Shown here: piece after piece, positions 21,996-59,528 of the stretch
Position numbering within the stretch: position 1 is the stretch's first letter
Layout of the letters: every line of letters starts with the position of its first letter
Source: an uncultured Methanosarcinales archaeon
GTDB lineage: Archaea; Nanobdellota; Nanobdellia; Woesearchaeales; CAXGTL01
Direction of reading: 5' to 3'
DNA: 64,000 bases
Assembly: GCA_964535955.1 (NCBI GenBank)
Contig: CAZHVK010000002.1
Coordinates: forward strand, 8,122-72,121
The notes under the pieces: model-generated
Told to the model about the DNA's origin: nothing
The model's database searches: none
What the model saw: the letters and a program-made list of their open reading frames with translations, nothing else
Program-made: the position numbers and the translations under genes

Positions 21996-22122
21996 GTGGG
22001 GATGCCGGAGTGGCCAAGTATCTGGTAAAGATAGGCTAAACGGGGCAGACTCAAAATCTGCTAGCTTAGTGCTTACGGGGGTTCGAACCAATAATTATAT
22101 TGCGAAAGTCCCTCTCCCCACA
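21996..22122 (+). tRNA. tRNA-Leu(CAA) with two non-canonical introns (D-loop 22018-22039; T-loop 59/60 22088-22108)
   Basis: Acceptor GTGGGGA/TCCCCAC; anticodon arm GCAGA-CTCAAAA-TCTGC; long variable arm; both inserts form BHB motifs (GGCC/GGCT and TTCG/CGAA central helices). Confidence 0.92.
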
Positions 22123-29562: not shown

Positions 29563-29758
29563 TGGGGATGCCGGGATTTGAACCCAGATTTCAACTCCTA
29601 ATATCATACAATACCAGGATCCGTTGGTCTCTTCATCAGAAGCGATAGACCAATAGTTAATCATCGCATTTCTGCTCATCGCTCCATTACTGGAGCCAAC
29701 TATTAAGGACAGATTGTGCTTAAACACAAATCTTCTAGCCAAGTTATACTACATCCCC
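29563..29758 (-). tRNA. tRNA-Trp(CCA) with three introns (D-arm ~29705-29734; 37/38 29629-29689; variable region 45/46 29590-29620)
   Basis: Acceptor GGGGATG/CATCCCC; anticodon arm GTTGG-CTCCAGA-CCAAC; T arm CTGGG-TTCAAAT-CCCGG; the 45/46 intron has a perfect CAAC/GTTG BHB; D-arm boundaries are less certain. Confidence 0.88.
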
Positions 29759-29863: not shown

Positions 29864-30000
29864 TGGGCCTGCCGAGACTCTCATACACCAAAATTATTTT
29901 GATGATTTTGAACTCGGGACCGCCCGATCTCTGAATTGATTATTTATCAGTCGGGTGCTCTAATTGACCAGTATATACTTCCAGTCTAAGCCACAGGCCC
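29864..30000 (-). tRNA. tRNA-Ile(GAT) with three introns (19/20 29964-29980; 37/38 29929-29944; 59/60 29878-29906)
   Basis: Acceptor GGGCCTG/CAGGCCC; anticodon arm CCCGA-CTGATAA-TCGGG; each insert has BHB geometry (GACT/GGTC, CTGA/TCAG, TTCA/TGAG). Confidence 0.92.
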
Positions 30001-31245: not shown

Positions 31246-32103
31246 CTAACCTTTTTGTTCTAAATCAATAATCTTTTTCAAAGAAAATATTGCAGTTTTT
31301 ATTTGTTTATCATTAGGCTCCCTTGTTGTCAAACTTTGTAGCCAAAGTCCAGGAGTAATAACCAACCTAAAGAACAAATTTTTACAAAACTTTGCACTCA
31401 ATTTTAATATTTCATAAGAAATTCCTGCAATTACTGGAATTAAAATAATTCTTGCTAATAGCTTAATCCACCAAGATTCTGTTATCACAAAAGAAAAAAT
31501 AATTATACTTATGACCAAAACAATTAATATAAAAGAAGTACCACATCTCGGATGTTTTGTTGAAAATTTCTTACAATTCTTAACATTCAAATTTAATCCA
31601 GCATCATAACAATTAACAGCTTTATGCTCTGCTCCATGATACTCAAACAATATTTTAATATCATCCATAAAAGAAATAATTGATAAATAAACAACAAAAA
31701 CTACCACTCTAAAAATTCCATCAACAATATTAAATAAGAGCATACTTTCAAAATTAAAAAGTTTAGTTAAATACAAAGGCAAAATAATGAAAAATAATAT
31801 ACCAAAAAAAGCAGAAGTAAATAGTAAGAAAAATAATTCTTTGAAAGTAAATTCTTCAGATTCTTCTGTTTGTTGATTAGCACTCCAAACCAATGTTTTT
31901 ATTCCAATAACTAATATCTGCAATAATTGAAAAAAACCCCTAATAAAAGGCCAGTACAAAAAACCAAACCTGTATTTTCTAATTCTTTTATTGATATTTT
32001 TTATTTTGCCATCTTTCCATATAGAAACAGAATAATAATTATCACTTTTCATCATAACTCCCTCTATTACTGCTTGTCCACCTATTTGTAGTTTTTTATT
32101 CAT
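31246..32103 (-). CDS. DUF1385 membrane metal-dependent protein
   Basis: GGQAVIEGVMM, YHGAEHK, HPRCGTSF, LTTREP. Confidence 0.92.
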   Translation of the reverse strand: MNKKLQIGGQAVIEGVMMKSDNYYSVSIWKDGKIKNINKRIRKYRFGFLYWPFIRGFFQLLQILVIGIKTLVWSANQQTEESEEFTFKELFFLLFTSAFFGILFFIILPLYLTKLFNFESMLLFNIVDGIFRVVVFVVYLSIISFMDDIKILFEYHGAEHKAVNCYDAGLNLNVKNCKKFSTKHPRCGTSFILIVLVISIIIFSFVITESWWIKLLARIILIPVIAGISYEILKLSAKFCKNLFFRLVITPGLWLQSLTTREPNDKQIKTAIFSLKKIIDLEQKG

Positions 32104-39389: not shown

Positions 39390-40127
39390 ATGACTAATAA
39401 TGTAAATATAAAATTAAGTTCAAAAGATAAAATTAAAGGTTTAAAACTACCCAACAATATTTCTAAAGAATTAGCCTATTTATGTGGTGTTCTGATAGGA
39501 GACGGAAGTTTATACATAAGAAAGAAAAAATATGATTATATTATCAAATGTGTTGGTAATCCAAAAAATGAAAAAGAATATTATCATAGAATAATTGCTC
39601 CTTATTTTAAAAAAGTTTTTGGTTTATTACCAGCAATAAAGTTACATGACTCAAATACTACTTTTGGATTTACAATTCATTCTAAATCTTTACTTAAATA
39701 CTTTGAAAAAATAGGATTTTCTATTGGAAAAAAAGACGAAAATTTAGACATTCCTCATTCAATTAAAGAAAATAAAAACCTTTTAATTCCATTTATAAGA
39801 GGGTTATTTGACACTGATGGTTGCATTTGTTTTAAAAAAAAGTATAAGCTTAAACCTTATTATCCAGTCATAAGTGTTTCTTCACAAAGTAAAAAATTAA
39901 TCAAAGAAGTATCAAAAATACTCAAAGAATTAGGATTTAAAATTGTAGAAACATATGATTACAAAGTTAAAGATAAAAGAAATGAAAAAGGATTTACAAT
40001 AATAAACAGAATAGAATTAAATGGTAAAGATAATCTTAGGAAATGGATGTCTACAATTAATTTTTACAGTCCAAAACATTTAGAGAAGATAAAAATTTGG
40101 GAAGAAAATAGCGGGGAGAGGATTTGA
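39390..40127 (+). CDS. Free-standing two-motif LAGLIDADG homing endonuclease
   Basis: LAYLCGVLIGDGSL and FIRGLFDTDGC motifs; no intein Hint ends; 3' end overlaps the tRNA-iMet antisense. Confidence 0.9.
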   Translation: MTNNVNIKLSSKDKIKGLKLPNNISKELAYLCGVLIGDGSLYIRKKKYDYIIKCVGNPKNEKEYYHRIIAPYFKKVFGLLPAIKLHDSNTTFGFTIHSKSLLKYFEKIGFSIGKKDENLDIPHSIKENKNLLIPFIRGLFDTDGCICFKKKYKLKPYYPVISVSSQSKKLIKEVSKILKELGFKIVETYDYKVKDKRNEKGFTIINRIELNGKDNLRKWMSTINFYSPKHLEKIKIWEENSGERI

Positions 40128-40307: not shown

Positions 40308-40425
40308 GTCGAGGTGGCACAATCTGGTACTGCGCCAGCCTGCTATTGCAAGGCTGACAGCTGGTTTCCTTCGGGATTTCGGGGTTCAAATTGATTACAA
40401 TATCATGAAAGTCCCCGCCTCGACG
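40308..40425 (+). tRNA. tRNA-Ser(GCT) with two introns (37/38 40346-40358; 59/60 40391-40411)
   Basis: Acceptor GTCGAGG/CCTCGAC; CCAGC-CTGCTA..A-GCTGG; long variable arm; TTCA/TGAA BHB. Confidence 0.9.
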
Positions 40426-40436
40426 TTTTTATTATT

Positions 40437-41231
40437 CTAAGAACTATCTTCTAAATAATTTCTAACCCTATTATAATCTCTCCAACCATCAACATCAATT
40501 GCAGGTTCTGCACAATCTAGCTTAACCAAAGAAAACCTTGTACCTGAGATGCTTGAGATTACATTTTTAAGGTAATCAAAACTAACATCATTCAATAAAT
40601 ATTTAATCAAAAGTTTAGGAACAGTATAAGGAAACCTAATACACCATGCTAACTTAGTTCTAAACTTTTTCATATTCCTAAGCATGTATGCAGTTTTAAC
40701 ATACTCCTTATTTCTAAAATTATCAACATTACATATCAACATATTACCAGTAACAAAATTACCTTCAACAGTTTTAAAATATTTCTTTTTCACAGCTCCA
40801 TCTTTTTCATACCCATGCAATAAATAATCTTCAACAACAGAAAAAAACAAATCATGATTACCAAAATCATGCTTGCACTTATCTACAAAACAATCAATGT
40901 GTTTTTCTTCTATAAAAGGTAAATCCCCTGTGATAAATAATTTATAATCCTTCTTAGTACCAATAGAATCTAAAATCTCTACACCAATCTCAGCATTATT
41001 CAATATATTTCCATAATTACTAACACCTACAACATTTTTTCCTTTAAAACTTTGATTAATGATCTGTTCTGTTTTTCTCTTACCAACAACCACAACATTC
41101 TTAATATAATTACTATTAACCAATGCTTCAACCACATAGCAAACTATATGTTTATCATTGATCTTTTTCAATGCATTTCTTCCTCTTAACCCTCCTGCCA
41201 TAACAACAGCATCTAGTGTGATATTTCCCAT
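40437..41231 (-). CDS. MobA-like NTP transferase
   Basis: DAVVMAGG, ITGDLP, AIDVD; start moved to MGNIT. Confidence 0.85.
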   Translation of the reverse strand: MGNITLDAVVMAGGLRGRNALKKINDKHIVCYVVEALVNSNYIKNVVVVGKRKTEQIINQSFKGKNVVGVSNYGNILNNAEIGVEILDSIGTKKDYKLFITGDLPFIEEKHIDCFVDKCKHDFGNHDLFFSVVEDYLLHGYEKDGAVKKKYFKTVEGNFVTGNMLICNVDNFRNKEYVKTAYMLRNMKKFRTKLAWCIRFPYTVPKLLIKYLLNDVSFDYLKNVISSISGTRFSLVKLDCAEPAIDVDGWRDYNRVRNYLEDSS

Positions 41232-41340
41232 GTTCTTAGTGATAACTTTTGCATTTATATTGATTTGTATATTATAATAATTATAATAGAAAAACTTTAT
41301 ATATAACAAAACTATTATTAATTAAAACGAGGAACACAAT

Positions 41341-43782
41341 GTGACATATGAAATAGTAATCGGAAGAAATAAACAACAGATCGAACAATATGGTAAATTA
41401 GGAACTATTTTCTTAGCAAAACAATATGTCCAGATGGGTCAGGTCACATCATTAGCAAATGAAGTTTACATGGACATTGCAAGTGCACATGTTGTATTTG
41501 TAGTAGGTAAGAGAGGCTGTATTACAGGTGATACTAAAATATTTACTAATAGTGGATATAAGGATATTAAAGATTTTGATGAAACAAATGACTTAGTAAT
41601 ATCATTTAACAAAAACAAAGAAAGTTTTCAATGGGAAAATGCTAAATTACTAAAATACGACACTAAAAAGAGTGAAGAAATGATCAAAATTCAAAATTAT
41701 GATGGTCAAGAATTAATAATGACAAAAGAACATCCTTTATTAATTAAAGAAAAAGGAAAATTAATCTGGAAAAATGCAGAAAATCTGAAAAAAGGTGATA
41801 TTCTAGTAGGAATTTCAAAAGTTCCAGAAGTAAAGAATGATTCTGAAAGTCTAAGAATTGCAAGATTATTAGGATTTATATTAGCAGATGGAACAATGCA
41901 AGCAAGAAAAGGCAGATTTAAAGATGGTAGAGGGAAATGGTATAATGGGACAAAAAGAAGAGTAAGAATAATAAATGCTTCAGAAGATGTTCTAAAAACA
42001 TCAAAACAAGATTTAGAAAAAGAATTCAATATTACAGCAAAAAGATACAAAAAAAGTAAAGAAAACTGCTATGTTATTGAAACAAAACAAGGGAAAGTTC
42101 TAAGAAAATTAAATAAATTAGGGATTCCACTAGGATTAAAATCTCATAAAATAAGAGTTCCAAAAGTAGTATTTGAAAGTTCAAATAAATTTAAAGCAAA
42201 TTTTTTAAAAGCATTATTTTCTTGTGATGGTTATGTTAATAAAGATGGAAAACATATTGTTTATTATTCAAAATCCAGAAGATTTTTAGAAGATCTTAAT
42301 TTAGTGTTAAATCATTTTAATATTCAATCAACAATAAGGGATAAAATTGTGAAATTAAATGGCAAAATATTTCCTAATTTTCAGCTTTATATTACAGACC
42401 ATAATTCTTTAGAAAGTTTCAAGAAAATAGGATTTACAGATACGACTAAAGAAAAAAAATTAAGTAAACATAAATTCTGGAGAATGAAAAGAAGAAAAAG
42501 AACAAAATATTTTAATAATGATGTATTCGAACAAAAGATTACAAAGGTTTCTAAGATAAAAGGAGTTAAAGAAGTGTATGATTTACAGGTTCTTGAAAAT
42601 AATTCATTCATAGCAAATGGAATTATCTCCCATAACAGCGGAAAATCCTACACAATGGGAGTCATAGCAGAAGGCTTAGCTTCAATGCCAATCAAAGTCA
42701 GAAATAATCTAAGCATTGTGATGCTAGATACAATGGGTGTTTATTGGACAATGAAATATCCAAATAGACAAGATTCAGAAATTCTTAGAGATTGGAACCT
42801 AGAGCCAAAACCACTTGATGTCATAATCTTTACACCAATTGGTTATTATAATAAATATAAAGAAGAAGGTGTTCCAACTGATTATCCTTTTTCAATCAAA
42901 CCTTCAGAATTAAGTATAGTCGACTGGTGTCTTAGTTTTGGTATTGATAGGAATTCAGATCTTGGTGTATTGATAGAACGAGTTATCAATGATCTCGGTG
43001 AGAGAAAAAAAGATTATTCAATAGATGATATAATAAAGGCAATAAAAGATGACACAAAATCAGGGGATAATATAAAAAATGCAGCAGAAAATCGTTTTCT
43101 TAACACAGAAACATGGGGTTTATTTTCAGAACAAGGTGTTAAACTAATTGATTTAGTCAAACCAGGAAAAATAACTATCTTAGATGTAAGTTGTTATGCA
43201 ACTGTTCCAGGTGGTTGGACAATAAAATCTTTAGTAATTGGTTTAGTTGCACAAAAATTATTTATTGATAGGATGAAGCAAAGAAAAACAGAAGAATTTG
43301 CAGACATTGAAAAATCCATCCACTTTTTCTCAGAAAAAAAAATAACAACAATGCCTCTTGTTTGGTTAGTCATTGATGAAGCACATGAATTCTTACCAAA
43401 CAAAGGAAAAACAACTGCAAGTGACGCCCTAATTACAATCTTAAGAGAAGGAAGACAACCAGGAATCTCATTAATCTTAGCTTCACAACAACCAGGAAAG
43501 ATACACACAGATGTAATGACACAATCAGACATAATAGTTGCACACAGACTAACAGCAAAGATTGACACAGATGCATTAGCAGTATTAATGCAAAGTTATA
43601 TGAGAGAAGGCCTTGACAGACAACTAGACAATCTTCCAGGTGAAAAAGGTTCTGCATTAATAATAGATGACCAGAATGAAAGAATCTATCCAGTCCACAT
43701 AAGACCAAGGTTCACATGGCATGGTGGTGGATCACCGATTGCTATAAGACAACAAGTTAAAAAGAATGAGTTTGATTTATAA
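41341..43782 (+). CDS. HerA/FtsK-like (DUF87) ATPase containing an intein
   Basis: Walker A GKRG|SGKS split by the intein; LVIDEAHEF, LREGRQPGISLILASQQP. Confidence 0.9.
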   Translation: MTYEIVIGRNKQQIEQYGKLGTIFLAKQYVQMGQVTSLANEVYMDIASAHVVFVVGKRGCITGDTKIFTNSGYKDIKDFDETNDLVISFNKNKESFQWENAKLLKYDTKKSEEMIKIQNYDGQELIMTKEHPLLIKEKGKLIWKNAENLKKGDILVGISKVPEVKNDSESLRIARLLGFILADGTMQARKGRFKDGRGKWYNGTKRRVRIINASEDVLKTSKQDLEKEFNITAKRYKKSKENCYVIETKQGKVLRKLNKLGIPLGLKSHKIRVPKVVFESSNKFKANFLKALFSCDGYVNKDGKHIVYYSKSRRFLEDLNLVLNHFNIQSTIRDKIVKLNGKIFPNFQLYITDHNSLESFKKIGFTDTTKEKKLSKHKFWRMKRRKRTKYFNNDVFEQKITKVSKIKGVKEVYDLQVLENNSFIANGIISHNSGKSYTMGVIAEGLASMPIKVRNNLSIVMLDTMGVYWTMKYPNRQDSEILRDWNLEPKPLDVIIFTPIGYYNKYKEEGVPTDYPFSIKPSELSIVDWCLSFGIDRNSDLGVLIERVINDLGERKKDYSIDDIIKAIKDDTKSGDNIKNAAENRFLNTETWGLFSEQGVKLIDLVKPGKITILDVSCYATVPGGWTIKSLVIGLVAQKLFIDRMKQRKTEEFADIEKSIHFFSEKKITTMPLVWLVIDEAHEFLPNKGKTTASDALITILREGRQPGISLILASQQPGKIHTDVMTQSDIIVAHRLTAKIDTDALAVLMQSYMREGLDRQLDNLPGEKGSALIIDDQNERIYPVHIRPRFTWHGGGSPIAIRQQVKKNEFDL
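41518..42636 (+). mobile_element. 373-aa intein with LAGLIDADG endonuclease inserted in the P-loop
   Basis: Begins C(ITGDT), block B TKEHP, LGFILADG / LFSCDG, ends VYDLQV...ISHN followed by Ser. Confidence 0.95.
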
Positions 43783-43882
43783 CAGAATATATAATTATTA
43801 CCAACAAGATTATAATATTTTCAAAAATAGAAACCAAAACATATAAATCTATATATACCCCTAAACCAAAACTAAAACCATA

Positions 43883-45094
43883 ATGGAATTAGAAAGACTA
43901 ACAAAACTAGTTCTTGTAACAGGAAGTTCTCCAAATAGCTTAAAACTTGGAAAAGGAATTGAAAACATCCTAAAAAATGACTATAGATTAGAAAATATTG
44001 AACTATTTCCTTCTAAAAAAATCTCAGAACTTACACCAGAACAAAAAGAACATAGAGATTCATCAAGACCTTTAATCTTAGACAAATATCCTGATGGTGA
44101 AACAAGACCAGAGATTGGTAAAGAATTTTTAAGAAAAAAAATAAGTGGAAAAAGTATATTTTTAGTAAACTATATGTTCAAACCAAATCCAGATAAAGAT
44201 GAACCAAGGATTAATGACTGTTTATTTGAAGTATTATCATTATTCAATACACTTAAACAGATAGAAACAGAAAAAATGACATTAGTAACACCATATCTAA
44301 CATATCTAAGATCACATAGTGTTGAAAAATATATAAAAAATAAAGGTCTTTACCAAGGAAATACATTAGAAATGATGGTTAATTATTTAGCATTAGAGGA
44401 TGTTAAAGAGATCTTGACAATTGATCCTCATTCGACACAAATAGAAAAATACTGTGAACTTAACAATATAGGTTTTCATTACAGAGATCCTTTTAGCACA
44501 TCAAGATACACACCTTATCCTAAACTAGGTTTTAAGACAAAAGAACAAGCAAAACATGTTTTAGAAAAACTACAGCCATTTATTACATATTTTAAAGAAC
44601 ATGAAGAAGAATACAAGAAGAAATATAAAAAAATATTAGTAGTATGTCCAGATCCTAGTTCAGAAACAAGAGCAGAAGAATTTGCAGAAGATGTAGGTTT
44701 AGGATTTGAAAATCTGGGTTATATAATAAAAGAAAGAATTGATGTTGGTAAAGTAAAAATTTCTGGTTTTAAAAATTTTAGTTGTGTAAAGAAAAAAGAT
44801 GTAGAAGGTGCATTAATTATATTAATAGATGACATGGTTTCAAGTGGTACAACAATGAATGAAAATGCAAGAGATCTTAAATATATGGGTGCAAAAAGAA
44901 TTGAGGCTTGGGCATCTCATCCAGTATGTCCAAATATAGAAAAAATAAATGACCTTGATGCAATTGACAAGTTTGTATTTCTAAATACAATACAACAAAA
45001 ATCAAAAAAAATAGAATTAATACCAGACTCAGCAGAATACCTATTATCTGCATTAATCTTCAAGAGTTATATGAGAGGTCCTGCTATTAGGTGA
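43883..45094 (+). CDS. Divergent ribose-phosphate pyrophosphokinase-like protein
   Basis: YPDGET, TIDPHS, VCPD, ILIDDMVSSGTT, ASHPV. Confidence 0.75.
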   Translation: MELERLTKLVLVTGSSPNSLKLGKGIENILKNDYRLENIELFPSKKISELTPEQKEHRDSSRPLILDKYPDGETRPEIGKEFLRKKISGKSIFLVNYMFKPNPDKDEPRINDCLFEVLSLFNTLKQIETEKMTLVTPYLTYLRSHSVEKYIKNKGLYQGNTLEMMVNYLALEDVKEILTIDPHSTQIEKYCELNNIGFHYRDPFSTSRYTPYPKLGFKTKEQAKHVLEKLQPFITYFKEHEEEYKKKYKKILVVCPDPSSETRAEEFAEDVGLGFENLGYIIKERIDVGKVKISGFKNFSCVKKKDVEGALIILIDDMVSSGTTMNENARDLKYMGAKRIEAWASHPVCPNIEKINDLDAIDKFVFLNTIQQKSKKIELIPDSAEYLLSALIFKSYMRGPAIR

Positions 45095-45141
45095 TTTAAA
45101 AAAAATTAAGAAACAATAAAAAATATAACATAGCCTTTAAC

Positions 45142-45177
45142 AGCCACTGGCGGGATGATTGGGGCGGAGCAGGTGGG
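45142..45177 (+). repeat. G-tract dispersed element, degenerate copy 5
   Basis: GGCGGGATGATTGGGGCGGAGCAGGTGGG between convergent genes. Confidence 0.5.
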
Positions 45178-45183
45178 AAATTA

Positions 45184-45501
45184 TCAGCTGATTTCTAAAG
45201 ACCTAAACGAAGCAATAATCACTATTATAAAAAAGATTATAAATGTTGCTCCCCATTCAAGTGCTAATTTTTTTCCTTCAAAACCAAAGTATGTCCACCA
45301 AAGTGCTACTATCAAACCAAGAAGACCAAACATAAAAAAACCTTGCGATAGTGGTATTCTCTTGATTGGTTTTTTAGTTTTTACAATTTTTACTTTTTTT
45401 GGTTTTCTTTTAACAACTTTTTTCTTAGCTCTTGATTTTCTTTTAACAACCCTTTTCTTAATTTTCCTTTTTTTAACAGCTTTTTTCTTTTTCTTAGCCA
45501 T
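45184..45501 (-). CDS. Small membrane protein with Lys/Arg-rich N-terminal tail and two TM helices
   Basis: SD GAGGTGA upstream; MAKKKKKAVKKRK... followed by two hydrophobic segments. Confidence 0.75.
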   Translation of the reverse strand: MAKKKKKAVKKRKIKKRVVKRKSRAKKKVVKRKPKKVKIVKTKKPIKRIPLSQGFFMFGLLGLIVALWWTYFGFEGKKLALEWGATFIIFFIIVIIASFRSLEIS

Positions 45502-45522
45502 GATATTCACCTCTTATTTATT

Positions 45523-45569
45523 CCACCTACTAAACCAAGGGCGGGTGGCCGGGGGTTATGGAAGGTGGG
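45523..45569 (+). repeat. G-tract dispersed element, copy 6
   Basis: CCACCT...AGGGCGGGTGGCCGGGGGTTATGGAAGGTGGG. Confidence 0.85.
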
Positions 45570-45571
45570 TA

Positions 45572-46696
45572 TTATTTTATTTTATACAGATACTTATCAA
45601 TCAATTTTTCAGCTTTTTTTCTTTTTTTCTGATGCTCTGCCAAAAACTCATTTATTCTCTCAATCAATATTAATTTTAACTCACCTGTTAACATAGCACC
45701 AGACTTATAATTATCATGAATTTCTTTTAATTTTTTATCATCAGGTTCAAAATATCTTAACCATTGATAACTAACATCCACATCAGGATTTCCACCCTTT
45801 TTTCTATGCTCTTCAACAGTAGCTTGTCCACCTGAAAAAGCATATTTATTTATTTTTCTTTTAACAGTTTTAGCATCATCAGTTGTTAAGATAGCTTGTT
45901 CAGAACTTGATGTACTCATCTTACCAGTTACACCTACCAATGGAGGCATAAATTTAGAATGTATGATTGCTGGTTTATGATGACCTAGTTTCTCAACAAC
46001 ATCCCTGCTTAATCTAAAATGTGTATCTTGATCAATACCTAAAGGAATCAAGCAAGGCTTATCTTCTTTTCTCAACACATTTGGTAAAAAAACAGGCACT
46101 GTTTGCATTGCAGTATAAAAAATACTCCCAATATTATTTTCATTTGTAAAACCAAATGCAGCTTTTATTGATGAAAAATTAATCTTTTTTGCAACCTTTA
46201 TTGCTTCAGGATACATTATTCCTGCATGAACAGTATCAACCAAAAAATGTGTCTTTTTAGGATCAAAACCAAGAGCAATAACATCTAACATATTATCATG
46301 AGTCCATTTTTGTATTTCATCATAAGACTTTTTCTTATTAAACAAAAATTTTTCATCATCTGTAAATTGAAACCACAGATCAACTTTAAACTTGTCTTGC
46401 AACCATTTAGTAAATATCCATGTTGCTAAATGACCTATGTGTAATGGTCCTGAAGGGCCACAACCAGTATATAAAAAAAATTTATTACCTTTTTCATATT
46501 CATCTAAACACCATTTAAGATCTCTATTGGCAAAAAATATACCTCTCCTAAGAAAAGGATGAACCTCTCCTGCCAACTTATTGATTCTATCCAAGTCATT
46601 TTTAGAAAGCTTCTTTACACCAAACTCATTAATCAATTTATCATAATCTACTTCACCCTGCACTTCATATGGGTTTACCACAAACTTTTTTGCCAT
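45572..46696 (-). CDS. trpS: Tryptophan--tRNA ligase (archaeal type)
   Basis: YTGCGPSGPLHIGH, TDDEK, GIDQD, KMSTS, AFSGGQ. Confidence 0.96.
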   Translation of the reverse strand: MAKKFVVNPYEVQGEVDYDKLINEFGVKKLSKNDLDRINKLAGEVHPFLRRGIFFANRDLKWCLDEYEKGNKFFLYTGCGPSGPLHIGHLATWIFTKWLQDKFKVDLWFQFTDDEKFLFNKKKSYDEIQKWTHDNMLDVIALGFDPKKTHFLVDTVHAGIMYPEAIKVAKKINFSSIKAAFGFTNENNIGSIFYTAMQTVPVFLPNVLRKEDKPCLIPLGIDQDTHFRLSRDVVEKLGHHKPAIIHSKFMPPLVGVTGKMSTSSSEQAILTTDDAKTVKRKINKYAFSGGQATVEEHRKKGGNPDVDVSYQWLRYFEPDDKKLKEIHDNYKSGAMLTGELKLILIERINEFLAEHQKKRKKAEKLIDKYLYKIK

Positions 46697-46776
46697 ATAC
46701 ATTCTTATAGCAGTATTGTATAAAAACCTTTCTAATATTCATTAATTTTATATACATATTATACATAGCAACAAAT

Positions 46777-47307
46777 ATGAGAACCTTTATATCAATATCA
46801 ATACCAGAAAATGTGTCAAAAATAATACAAAATATACAAAACCACTTACCAAGTGAAGATTGCAAACTAAACATAGCAAAAAACCTTCATTTGACATTAA
46901 AATTCTTAGGAGAAATAGATAAAAAACAAGCAGAACAAGTAAAACAAATACTAAAGACAGTTAAATTCAAGAAATTCAACCTAGAACTTGACAAAATAGG
47001 TTATTTCCCAAACAAAGACTATATAAGGGTTGTATGGATAGGTTTCAAAGACAATACACAAGTAAACCAATTACAAAAACAGATTGACAATAAACTTAAA
47101 GACCTCAACTTTTCAGTAGAAAAAAAGTTCCACCCACACATAACATTAGCAAGAGTCAAATTCATCAAAGACAAAGTAATGTTTAAGAATGAGATAAATA
47201 ACATAGAAATTGATAAACAAACCTTCCAAATTACCAAATTTAAACTAATCAAAAGCACACTAACACCTAAAGGTCCTGTTTATGAAGATTTAGCTGAATA
47301 TGAGTAA
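46777..47307 (+). CDS. thpR: RNA 2',3'-cyclic phosphodiesterase / 2'-5' RNA ligase
   Basis: Two HxT motifs (HLTLKF, HITLAR), KSTLTPKGPVY. Confidence 0.93.
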   Translation: MRTFISISIPENVSKIIQNIQNHLPSEDCKLNIAKNLHLTLKFLGEIDKKQAEQVKQILKTVKFKKFNLELDKIGYFPNKDYIRVVWIGFKDNTQVNQLQKQIDNKLKDLNFSVEKKFHPHITLARVKFIKDKVMFKNEINNIEIDKQTFQITKFKLIKSTLTPKGPVYEDLAEYE

Positions 47308-47373
47308 GGATTTCTACAAGGCAGTTAAAAAGAAACCTTTTTAAATGGATTCTAATTCTTATATATAAATAGA

Positions 47374-47468
47374 GGGGCTATGGGGTAGCTTGGTCTATCC
47401 TTTCTGGTTTGGGACCAGACGACCCCGGTTCAAAATGAAATAATATCATGAAAGTCCGGGTAGCCCCA
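47374..47468 (+). tRNA. tRNA-Pro(TGG) with a 20-nt intron at 59/60 (47435-47454)
   Basis: Acceptor GGGGCTA/TAGCCCC; TCTGG-TTTGGGA-CCAGA; TTCA/TGAA BHB; TATA-like TTATATATAAAT upstream. Confidence 0.93.
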
Positions 47469-57917: not shown

Positions 57918-59528
57918 TTAAGGTATACGCATACAATGCAAACCTCTATGATAAAGCTCTGATATCAATTCAGTCAAGACATGTGCATCTTTTTTTGCAT
58001 TAAGATTACCTTCATCAATACTCTTCATAAATTCACCTAATGCAACTTCTTTACTCAACATATGTGCAATATATCTCTTTGATATTCTACCATCTTTTGC
58101 ATCATAAGATTTTTTAAAATCATCATGATCTATATTAACATGAATTAAACCCATACGATGATCAAGCTTACTTCTTAAATGTTGATCTTCAACATCAAAA
58201 CCAACAAAATTAGGAGTATAAAAACCTGAAATTATTTTTCTTGCTCTTCTTACATGAGTTTCCTTACCATCAGGATCAGGAGTCACAGTACTTCTTCCTT
58301 CTTCTTTAGGTTTTTTAGTCCTAGTACCACCAACACGGGTACTACCTTTAGCACCTTCACCATCCTTAACTTTTTCCTTAGGATCTCCTCTTCTTCCACG
58401 AACAAGCGCAGGATTTTTATCAAGCAAATCTCTAAAAACAGCATCAATTGATCTTAAAAAATCATCAGCAAACTTATATGTTTGATCTTTCTTTGGATCT
58501 ATTTTCAATCTATTTACTTCATCACCAAGATATTCTTCTTGATCAGTCAATATTTCAACAAGTTTTGAATATCTTCCTTGTTCATCATTTCTCTTTGGAG
58601 CAGTTCTTGAAGGAATAAGTTTAACAAAATTTTCATCTACTTCTCCTATTAATTTACCACTTCCCCAAGGATGAACACCTAATTCATCTAAATCAACTAT
58701 ATCATCTAAAACCAATACACCTTTATTATAATAACCAACCTTGTCTCCTGTTCCCTTTGGATTAACAAATAAATATAATTCAACTTCACCCTTAATAGTA
58801 TGTTTCCTAGTTTTTATTTCAACAGGAAACACATCATCAAGCACTTTTACAACTCCTGAATTCTTAGTATAATCAACAGGATCTATTGGAATTTTTTTTT
58901 GATTTCTTCCTAAATAACCAACCTTTACACTAATTATGCCTTTTCTTAGTAAAGGTGAAAAAGTTGTACTAATTATTTCCTTTATTGAACCAGGTGTAAA
59001 ATATTTTTCAATCTTATCAACAGGAATTCCTGTTAATTCAACAATAGTTCCATGACCAAAATTAGGCAATGCTCTAAGCATAGGAACATCTTTTGGCTTG
59101 ATTATGTCACGAAATGCACCAGCTTTCAAATCAGCATTCATTCTTAAATAATTAAAATCATCACTCTTAGAATCATATCTTCTTGAATAAACAATACATT
59201 GTGTTGCAAAACAAGATGGAAAACCCATCATTCCAAATGCTTTTTCACCAATAGCAGACTGGACTCCTCTTTTCAATGATTCACCAACTTCAAATGGAAT
59301 CATTTTAAGAGTTTTATAAGTTATTCCTGATCCATTATCAACAAAAATTATTTTATTATTTGTTTTACTAACCAAAATACCTAAGTTCAAAGCCTCATTT
59401 TCTAATCTATTATCAATAGCATTTGAAGCAAATTCTTTGAATCCATATTTAGGACTAGGATACATTTGTTGAATTTCTCCAATCATAAAAAGATCATTTC
59501 CAATCCTATAAGGTATTTTTTCTCCCAT
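57918..59528 (-). CDS. GHKL (MORC/MutL/Hsp90-like) ATPase
   Basis: Bergerat motifs KEFASNAID, VDNGSGI, GEKAFG, GHGTIV; start MGEKI with SD GGAGGAG. Confidence 0.85.
   Translation of the reverse strand: MGEKIPYRIGNDLFMIGEIQQMYPSPKYGFKEFASNAIDNRLENEALNLGILVSKTNNKIIFVDNGSGITYKTLKMIPFEVGESLKRGVQSAIGEKAFGMMGFPSCFATQCIVYSRRYDSKSDDFNYLRMNADLKAGAFRDIIKPKDVPMLRALPNFGHGTIVELTGIPVDKIEKYFTPGSIKEIISTTFSPLLRKGIISVKVGYLGRNQKKIPIDPVDYTKNSGVVKVLDDVFPVEIKTRKHTIKGEVELYLFVNPKGTGDKVGYYNKGVLVLDDIVDLDELGVHPWGSGKLIGEVDENFVKLIPSRTAPKRNDEQGRYSKLVEILTDQEEYLGDEVNRLKIDPKKDQTYKFADDFLRSIDAVFRDLLDKNPALVRGRRGDPKEKVKDGEGAKGSTRVGGTRTKKPKEEGRSTVTPDPDGKETHVRRARKIISGFYTPNFVGFDVEDQHLRSKLDHRMGLIHVNIDHDDFKKSYDAKDGRISKRYIAHMLSKEVALGEFMKSIDEGNLNAKKDAHVLTELISELYHRGLHCMRIP

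Follow-up and report, generated by a model that had tools for sequence, protein, structure and literature searches.

In a genus of Woesearchaeales (DPANN archaea), exchange of introns between tRNA genes at the T-loop site between nucleotides 59 and 60 is well supported, and the sequence comparisons point to it clearly. The stretch of DNA considered here, called the window, is 64,000 nt long and belongs to genome G000 (G000:C2:8122-72121). It contains two interrupted genes, tRNA-Ser(GCT) and tRNA-Pro(TGG), whose 59/60 introns are moderately alike. By their predicted anatomy both elements are genuine archaeal protein-spliced introns of the bulge-helix-bulge (BHB) type. Their likeness probably stems from a Ser-type intron, through replacement or short-tract conversion. 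The pair is a borderline, weaker instance of a genus-wide pattern, and exchange across the lineage is supported far more by two other intron families, of 46 nt and 44 nt and found in four to five tRNA isotypes, than by these two genes.

Intron families shared between isotypes

Introns were compared between the source genome G000 (1.49 Mb, 29.8% GC, 31 contigs, completeness rated 100%) and three other species of the same genus, G001, G002 and G003, of which the G001 assembly is 71% complete. A wider set of 401 genomes of the order was used for a motif search. The RtcB sequences of the congeners are about equidistant from that of G000 (89-91% identical as protein, 84-85% as DNA). At least 18 strictly defined 59/60 introns were found in G000, together with several relaxed ones. 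The sequence-only reading had proposed to cluster the tRNA introns of this genome and its relatives and to map gains on a phylogeny. Comparison of the introns does give families that cross isotypes, and the RtcB tree intended to root the four species is an unresolved star.

One family, with 46 nt (CAAACTCAYTGGCGTTCGAT...), occupies the 59/60 site of Asn(GTT) in both G000 and G002, Thr(CGT) of G000, Lys(CTT) and Trp(CCA) of G002, and Leu(CAA) of G001; the Asn and Trp copies of G002 are identical at 43 of 46 positions. A 44-nt family occurs in Arg(TCG) and a Leu-like gene of G000, in Ser(GCT) of G002 and in Thr(AGT) of G001. A third intron, ATCTAGAAATAG[T/A]ATGAAA[G/A], is shared by Pro(TGG) and Ser(TGA) of G003 and Arg(TCG) of G001, and has diverged relatives in the Pro genes of G001 and G002. 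Arg(TCG) carries at least three distinct intron types among the four species. Another example is tRNA-Trp(CCA), for which the window gene of G000 (29563-29758, minus strand) was compared with the loci L109, L110 and L111. In G000 and G003 the 59/60 site of this gene is empty and a 30-nt intron immediately precedes the T-stem; a further intron lies in the D-loop of G003. In G002 the 59/60 site holds the 46-nt family, and in G001 it holds a 21-mer, TTGATCATTTGATCATGAAAG. A search with blastn-short found no copies of the intron families outside tRNA genes in G000.

In one case the exon flank may have moved together with the intron. The T-stem of Asn(GTT) in G002 (L072) is GCAGG/CCTGC, which is that of Thr(CGT) in G000, while Asn of G000 has GACAG/CTGTC. 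The 46-nt intron of G002 Asn is also closer to the Thr(CGT) copy of G000 (G000:C8:68837-68882; 37/40) than to the G000 Asn copy (31/40). Speculatively, this may be DNA-level co-conversion of T-stem and intron; the Thr(CGT) gene of G002 itself was not recovered for the comparison.

Not all introns differ between the species. The T-loop intron of Thr(TGT) at G000:C9:49526-49557 is identical at 32 of 32 positions to its ortholog in G002 (G002:C2, L080), with RtcB DNA about 84% identical. Some orthologous introns are thus 100% identical across species, which implies that intron sequence is not free to drift and is under purifying selection beyond what the BHB requires.

A side observation concerns the 44-nt family. 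In L087 (G000:C2:90623-93675), at about C2:92050-92190, a second T-arm and acceptor 3' half directly follow an intact tRNA-Leu(TAG) gene. This second T-arm and acceptor half are identical to those of tRNA-Leu(TAG) except for an intron of the 44-nt family, and the 5' part of the gene is unrecognisable. The copy may carry several introns, be split, or be decayed.

The two interrupted genes in the window

Neither ARAGORN (default and -i) nor Rfam reports a tRNA in the window, and the tRNA-Ser gene is accordingly missed by ARAGORN default and by Rfam. In the whole of G000 only 10 tRNAs pass the Rfam cut-off, and in a genome rated 100% complete this means that most tRNA genes must be disrupted. A SPLITS-like whole-genome scan for strict BHBs combined with ARAGORN yielded no more than 19 solutions with one splice and 9 with two, since introns are often relaxed or occur more than one to a gene. 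Intron finding was therefore switched to T-arm anchors and brute-force deletion, with a 37/38 rule imposed for introns in the anticodon loop, where ARAGORN's own placement is unreliable. Once both introns are removed, ARAGORN recognises the serine gene as Ser gct (score 119.4, 86 nt), and the spliced proline gene is recognised as Pro tgg with the same score of 119.4. The sequence-only reading had placed 59/60 introns in two unrelated tRNAs, and its coordinates agree exactly with those in Table 1.

Table 1. Interrupted tRNA genes, introns and a neighbouring reading frame in the window, with orthologous 59/60 introns of the congeners
Feature	Genome	Window position	Strand	Sequence	Description
Free-standing LAGLIDADG endonuclease ORF	G000	39390..40127	+		245 aa; Pfam LAGLIDADG_3, E = 8e-13; 180 nt upstream of tRNA-Ser
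tRNA-Ser(GCT) gene	G000	40308..40425	+		class II, long variable arm, discriminator G; two introns; read directly
tRNA-Ser intron, canonical 37/38	G000	40346..40358	+	TTGCAAGGCTGAC	13 nt; relaxed BHB, 3/4 central pairs; brute-force deletion scan with canonical-position rule
tRNA-Ser(GCT) intron, 59/60	G000	40391..40411	+	TTGATTACAATATCATGAAAG	21 nt; T / TGAT / TACAAT / ATCA / TGAA / AG
tRNA-Pro(TGG) gene	G000	47374..47468	+		class I; single intron
tRNA-Pro(TGG) intron, 59/60	G000	47435..47454	+	ATGAAATAATATCATGAAAG	20 nt; A / TGA / AATAATA / TCA / TGAA / AG
tRNA-Leu(CAA) intron, 59/60	G000	22088..22108	+	CCAATAATTATATTGCGAAAG	21 nt; comparison intron
tRNA-Ile(GAT) intron, 59/60	G000	29878..29906	-	ATCATCAAAATAATTTTGGTGTATGAGAG	29 nt; ~30-nt family, also in tRNA-Phe(GAA) on another contig
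Pro(TGG) intron, 59/60	G001			ATCTATATAAATAGAATGAAAA	
Pro(TGG) intron, 59/60	G003			ATCTAGAAATAGAATGAAAA	
Pro(TGG) intron, 59/60	G002			ACCTATCAAATAGGATGAAAA	
Ser(GCT) intron, 59/60	G003			TTTCACTTTTATGAATGAAAG	unrelated 21-mer
Ser(GCT) intron, 59/60	G002				44 nt, belongs to 44-nt family

Both introns lie between T-loop nucleotides 59 and 60, so that TTCAAA is followed by the intron and then by T and the 3' half of the T-stem. By pairing rules, the outer helix of the BHB is the 5-bp T-stem in both genes (CGGGG/CCCCG in Ser, CCCGG/CCGGG in Pro, with the same BHB layout). The central helix has 4 bp and joins T54-A57 (TTCA) to TGAA near the 3' end of the intron, and on either side of it, on opposite strands, is a 3-nt bulge (AA|N and AG|T) with the predicted cut after the second base. 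The inner helix, TGA(T)...(A)TCA, has 3-4 bp and closes the intron as a short hairpin. Both genes thus have the hBHBh' form by the pairing rule, and 59/60 is to the T-arm what the canonical 37/38 site is to the anticodon arm. RNAfold finds the T-stem and the inner hairpin of Ser; its minimum free energy fold recovers outer and inner helices and lacks the weak central 4-bp helix, so that the BHB assignment rests on the pairing rules. The machinery for splicing is encoded in the genome: there is a single EndA gene (a 231-aa frame; PF01974 match of 105.6 bits at C2:173259-173519) and an RtcB gene (PF01139, 544.7 bits, C7:17570-18859). The pre-tRNAs would presumably be cut by the single EndA and rejoined by RtcB.

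That the standard finders see no tRNA in the window could suggest that these genes are pseudogenes or assembly artefacts with introns that do not function. This is highly improbable. The missing tRNAs of a complete genome must be supplied by disrupted genes, the BHB rules are obeyed, and both splicing enzymes are present. The exons of the disrupted genes are moreover conserved in the congeners and across the order (tRNA-Pro(TGG) orthologs were detected in 33 of 40 order-level relatives). The 37/38 intron of Ser is kept in the G003 ortholog (TTGCAGAGCTGAC).

The hosts of the two introns, 7 kb apart, are not recent duplicates of each other. Ser(GCT) is a class II and Pro(TGG) a class I tRNA, and their acceptor, D, anticodon and T stems all differ.

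How alike the two introns are

The Ser and Pro introns are identical at 17 of 21 positions with one gap, and the term "near-identical" used in the sequence-only reading overstates this. Its other finding, a common 3' end of 13 nt, is correct: the 13-mer AATATCATGAAAG is present exactly twice in the 1.49-Mb genome, in these two introns only. The ends it gave for the Leu intron (GCGAAAG) and the Ile intron (TATGAGAG) were right as well. A large part of the match is nevertheless set by structure. The six terminal bases are nearly uninformative, because nearly all 59/60 introns of G000 end in YGAAAG or YGAAAA (15 of the 18 strict ones, followed by T60). The segment AATATCA had been taken as free of BHB constraint, which is true of AATA and not of TCA; the latter is the 3' arm of the inner helix and is tied through pairing to the 5' TGA. 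What then matches freely is the TGA, the AATA of the loop, and a length that is almost the same. Exact 13-mers common to either intron and random sites are frequent in the AT-rich genome, and it is the in-register position of the 13-nt match that is its only informative aspect.

To put numbers on this, introns were shuffled in such a way that the first base, the final six, the hairpin and the base composition of each were left unchanged. Shuffled pairs have a mean identity of 67% already. For the Ser/Pro pair, an identity of at least 81% has P = 0.05 and an identical 3' suffix of at least 13 nt has P = 0.001. Taking all 18 introns together, any pair with such a suffix appears in 0.7% of shuffled genomes (P = 0.007), and two or more pairs at 80% identity or above appear in 4% (P = 0.04). 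The pair is modestly unusual: its similarity in excess of constraint and composition is real but modest. Over BHB constraint plus AT bias, which the sequence-only reading had named as the level that similarity would need to surpass, the shuffles suggest a modest excess.

These numbers bear directly on the possibility that the likeness is a coincidence under constraint. Each intron would then be inherited vertically in its own gene, and the common 3' tract would come from the obligatory pairing of TGAA with the universal TTCA, the AG bulge preferred in this genome, an inner helix of 3 bp alike by chance, and four loop bases that are A or T against a background of ~80% A+T. Such an origin is less likely than not, but a serious competitor. 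The near-universal endings, the high null identity and the abundance of random 13-mers all favour it, as does a per-pair probability of 0.05 where 153 pairs can be formed; the rarity of an in-register suffix of this length in whole-genome shuffles speaks against it. So does the distribution of the design TTCAAA-N-TGA-N5-10-TCATGAAAG-TCC, which was found at only three places in the 401 genomes of the order, all in this genus (Ser and Pro of G000 and Trp of G001). A scan of metagenomes for the motif matched only unrelated GC-rich archaea, with a TGAC/GTCA helix; the design can thus arise independently, but rarely.

Selection could also have produced the same end twice, if AATATCATGAAAG were favoured for recognition by EndA or for binding of another factor. 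The near-universal GAAAG end and the complete conservation of some orthologous introns, at a time when RtcB DNA has diverged to about 84% identity, do show intron sequence to be under selection. The motif beyond TGAAAG is found, however, in only 2 of the 18 or more 59/60 introns, and orthologs of the same tRNAs in the congeners work with quite different introns. Convergence by selection is therefore very unlikely to be the explanation.

Orthologous introns and the case for replacement

The orthologs in the congeners (Table 1) show how the two sites are occupied elsewhere in the genus. The Pro introns of G001, G003 and G002 are of one common type, A[TC]CTA..TAG[AG]ATGAAAA, and are alike at 11-13 of 15-16 free positions. 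The Pro intron of G000 matches them at chance level (13/20; alignment scores of 2, 2 and -2), and it matches the Ser intron of its own genome at 11 of 15 free positions. Beyond the shuffles, this departure from the type of the congeners is the strongest argument for transfer in the Ser/Pro case. Orthologous tRNAs thus carry unrelated introns in the case of Pro, and the same holds for Ser(GCT), on a four-species tree that is an unrooted star. The Ser(GCT) gene was not found in the 71% complete assembly of G001. The G001 intron TTGATCATTTGATCATGAAAG was first taken as its Ser(GCT) ortholog and was rejected, as it sits in tRNA-Trp. Relatives outside the four genomes were sought through TyrRS, whose relatives are metagenome-assembled genomes (MAGs) of Candidatus Woesearchaeota and Nanoarchaeota; among 80 TyrRS-anchored loci from these MAGs, the search for syntenic Pro genes recovered only G002.

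Part of the likeness of the Ser and Pro introns is imposed by the BHB architecture. The excess most likely means that the two share an ancestor, a cassette having passed from the T-arm of one tRNA gene to that of another (by the "transposition" of the sequence-only reading, or by short-tract gene conversion) at a 59/60 site that was already occupied. The likeliest direction is from a Ser-type intron into the Pro gene of G000, whose resident intron it would have replaced or converted. We consider replacement or conversion of this kind the probable explanation, because exchange is demonstrated at the same site, the match to the Ser intron, at a distance of 7 kb, is in register, and no other genus among the 401 genomes of the order has the design. 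The independent demonstration of cassette exchange at 59/60 in this lineage also argues against coincidence, as does the fact that the G000 Pro intron no longer resembles a type which all three congeners retain, while other orthologous introns are up to 100% identical. The event would not be a gain of an intron, because the 59/60 site is occupied in the Pro orthologs of all three congeners and in both Ser(GCT) orthologs that were found. Of the earlier claim of a recent transposition between tRNA genes, movement is well supported for the genus and plausible for the pair, whereas "recent" is not supported: 4 of 21 columns differ, which is about the divergence of orthologous introns between species.

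Several points weigh against replacement. The introns have only 20-21 nt and about 80% A+T, and of the 13 bases that they share, some 8 are tied to the structure. The identity statistic by itself is not significant genome-wide, given 153 intron pairs, the suffix statistic was picked post hoc, after the data had been seen, and among other pairs of short introns with similar scores, some are apparently chance pairs. The 5' halves are unlike (TTGATTAC vs ATGAAAT), and the T-stems show no co-conversion. In the unrelated GC-rich archaea mentioned above, a comparable design, TGAC...GTCA-TGAAAG, has an independent origin. The polarity depends on an unrooted star, and if G000 branches first, the opposite polarity is at least as parsimonious as a change within G000. 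The inner helices of orthologous introns also turn over by compensatory change, as in Thr(AGT), where one species has CTAA/TTAG and another TCAA/TTGA; vertical divergence together with chance convergence is possible for this reason. Finally, splicing at both sites is a prediction from the DNA sequence.

The neighbourhood of the Pro gene can be noted separately. A reading frame of 176 aa for a LigT-like 2H phosphoesterase / 2'-5' RNA ligase (window 46777-47307, plus strand; Pfam E = 1e-34) lies between TyrRS and tRNA-Pro, and the order TyrRS-LigT-tRNAPro-L37ae is conserved in G001 and G002, not in G003.

Comparison with known systems

The phenomenon as such is already known from Thermoproteales, and disrupted tRNAs and 59/60 introns are likewise known from DPANN archaea. 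Transposed tRNA introns of Thermoproteales were reportedly treated by Sugahara et al. in 2008. Families of transposed BHB tRNA introns in this group are the subject of Fujishima et al. (2010, Mol Biol Evol 27:2233), as summarised in PMC4090602. Going by that summary, the genus studied here resembles Thermoproteales in having short protein-spliced introns of similar sequence in different isotypes whose bodies are not close paralogs, and in an intron content that differs among close relatives. It differs in the host, a DPANN archaeon of the Woesearchaeales with 30% GC and 1.5 Mb, and in that exchange is concentrated at 59/60 and often replaces a resident intron instead of filling an empty site.

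Among DPANN archaea, non-canonical 59/60 introns have been described in ARMAN-2 (Ca. Micrarchaeum), whose pre-tRNAs are cut by a broad-specificity EndA (PMC3239211; PMC5829648). Here the insertion site is the same, the introns are also short with a partly relaxed BHB, and the tRNA set is again largely invisible to standard finders in a DPANN host. Those papers deal with the specificity of the enzyme, in contrast to the sequence families across tRNAs that are described here.

A further comparison is offered by Asgard archaea, which have almost no cross-isotype intron families (1.5% at 80% identity; bioRxiv 10.64898/2026.10.13.758758). The two have in common that tRNA genes are heavily interrupted, that introns were gained repeatedly and that they sit at BHB-competent sites. 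Unlike Asgard, this genus has several clear cross-isotype families, which is a Thermoproteales-like behaviour. In the same study, 6.8% of shuffled introns fall in cross-isotype families at 80% identity, and with 81% over 21 nt the Ser/Pro pair is a weak example when set against this figure.

Copying of introns between archaeal tRNA genes has been argued only for Thermoproteales, and the Asgard census gave no general route by which introns arrive in new tRNA genes (bioRxiv 10.64898/2026.10.13.758758). A DPANN genus with interchangeable 59/60 cassettes would be tractable for dating gains and for testing DNA- against RNA-level routes. This tractability comes from several unambiguous cross-isotype families and from sister species that differ gene by gene. 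The Ser/Pro pair alone adds little to it, and illustrates how weak short-intron similarity is as evidence.

Endonuclease genes and a possible route of mobility

A free-standing LAGLIDADG endonuclease ORF lies just upstream of the tRNA-Ser gene (Table 1), and two more free-standing LAGLIDADG copies adjoin tRNA clusters elsewhere in G000. The two introns do not belong to the class that is mobilised by homing endonucleases in the usual sense: they have 20-21 nt with no ORF inside, and no free-standing LAGLIDADG ORF lies near Pro. A different involvement can be imagined, in which T-loop DNA without an intron (GGTTCRAATCC), a sequence that all tRNA genes share, would be a universal homing site in the lineage. 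The free-standing LAGLIDADG enzymes encoded next to tRNA clusters would cut unoccupied or mismatched T-arms, and repair would copy a cassette from any T-arm that bears an intron. We regard this as unlikely. If true, it would account for the at least 20 tRNA genes with a 59/60 intron, for the cross-isotype families and for occasional co-conversion of T-stems, and it would provide a DNA-level mechanism for the mobility of archaeal BHB introns.

LAGLIDADG domains also occur in inteins of this genome. In the window, an 813-aa HerA/DUF87-type ATPase (41341-43782, plus strand) contains an intein that carries a LAGLIDADG domain, and several further intein-type LAGLIDADG matches are found in large ORFs of G000.

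Other observations on tRNA genes

The tRNA-Arg(TCG) gene of G000 (C13, about 31500-31700, minus strand) appears to need a 15-nt intron within the anticodon itself, with a putative placement at nucleotides 35/36. Its removal would restore the loop CTTCGGA, as in G001.

Transfer RNAs with A34 are generally held to be absent from archaea. A tRNA-Thr with the anticodon loop CTAGTAA (AGT, hence A34) is conserved in three of the four species (G000:C9 around 58859-58886, minus strand; L081 of G003; L090 of G001).

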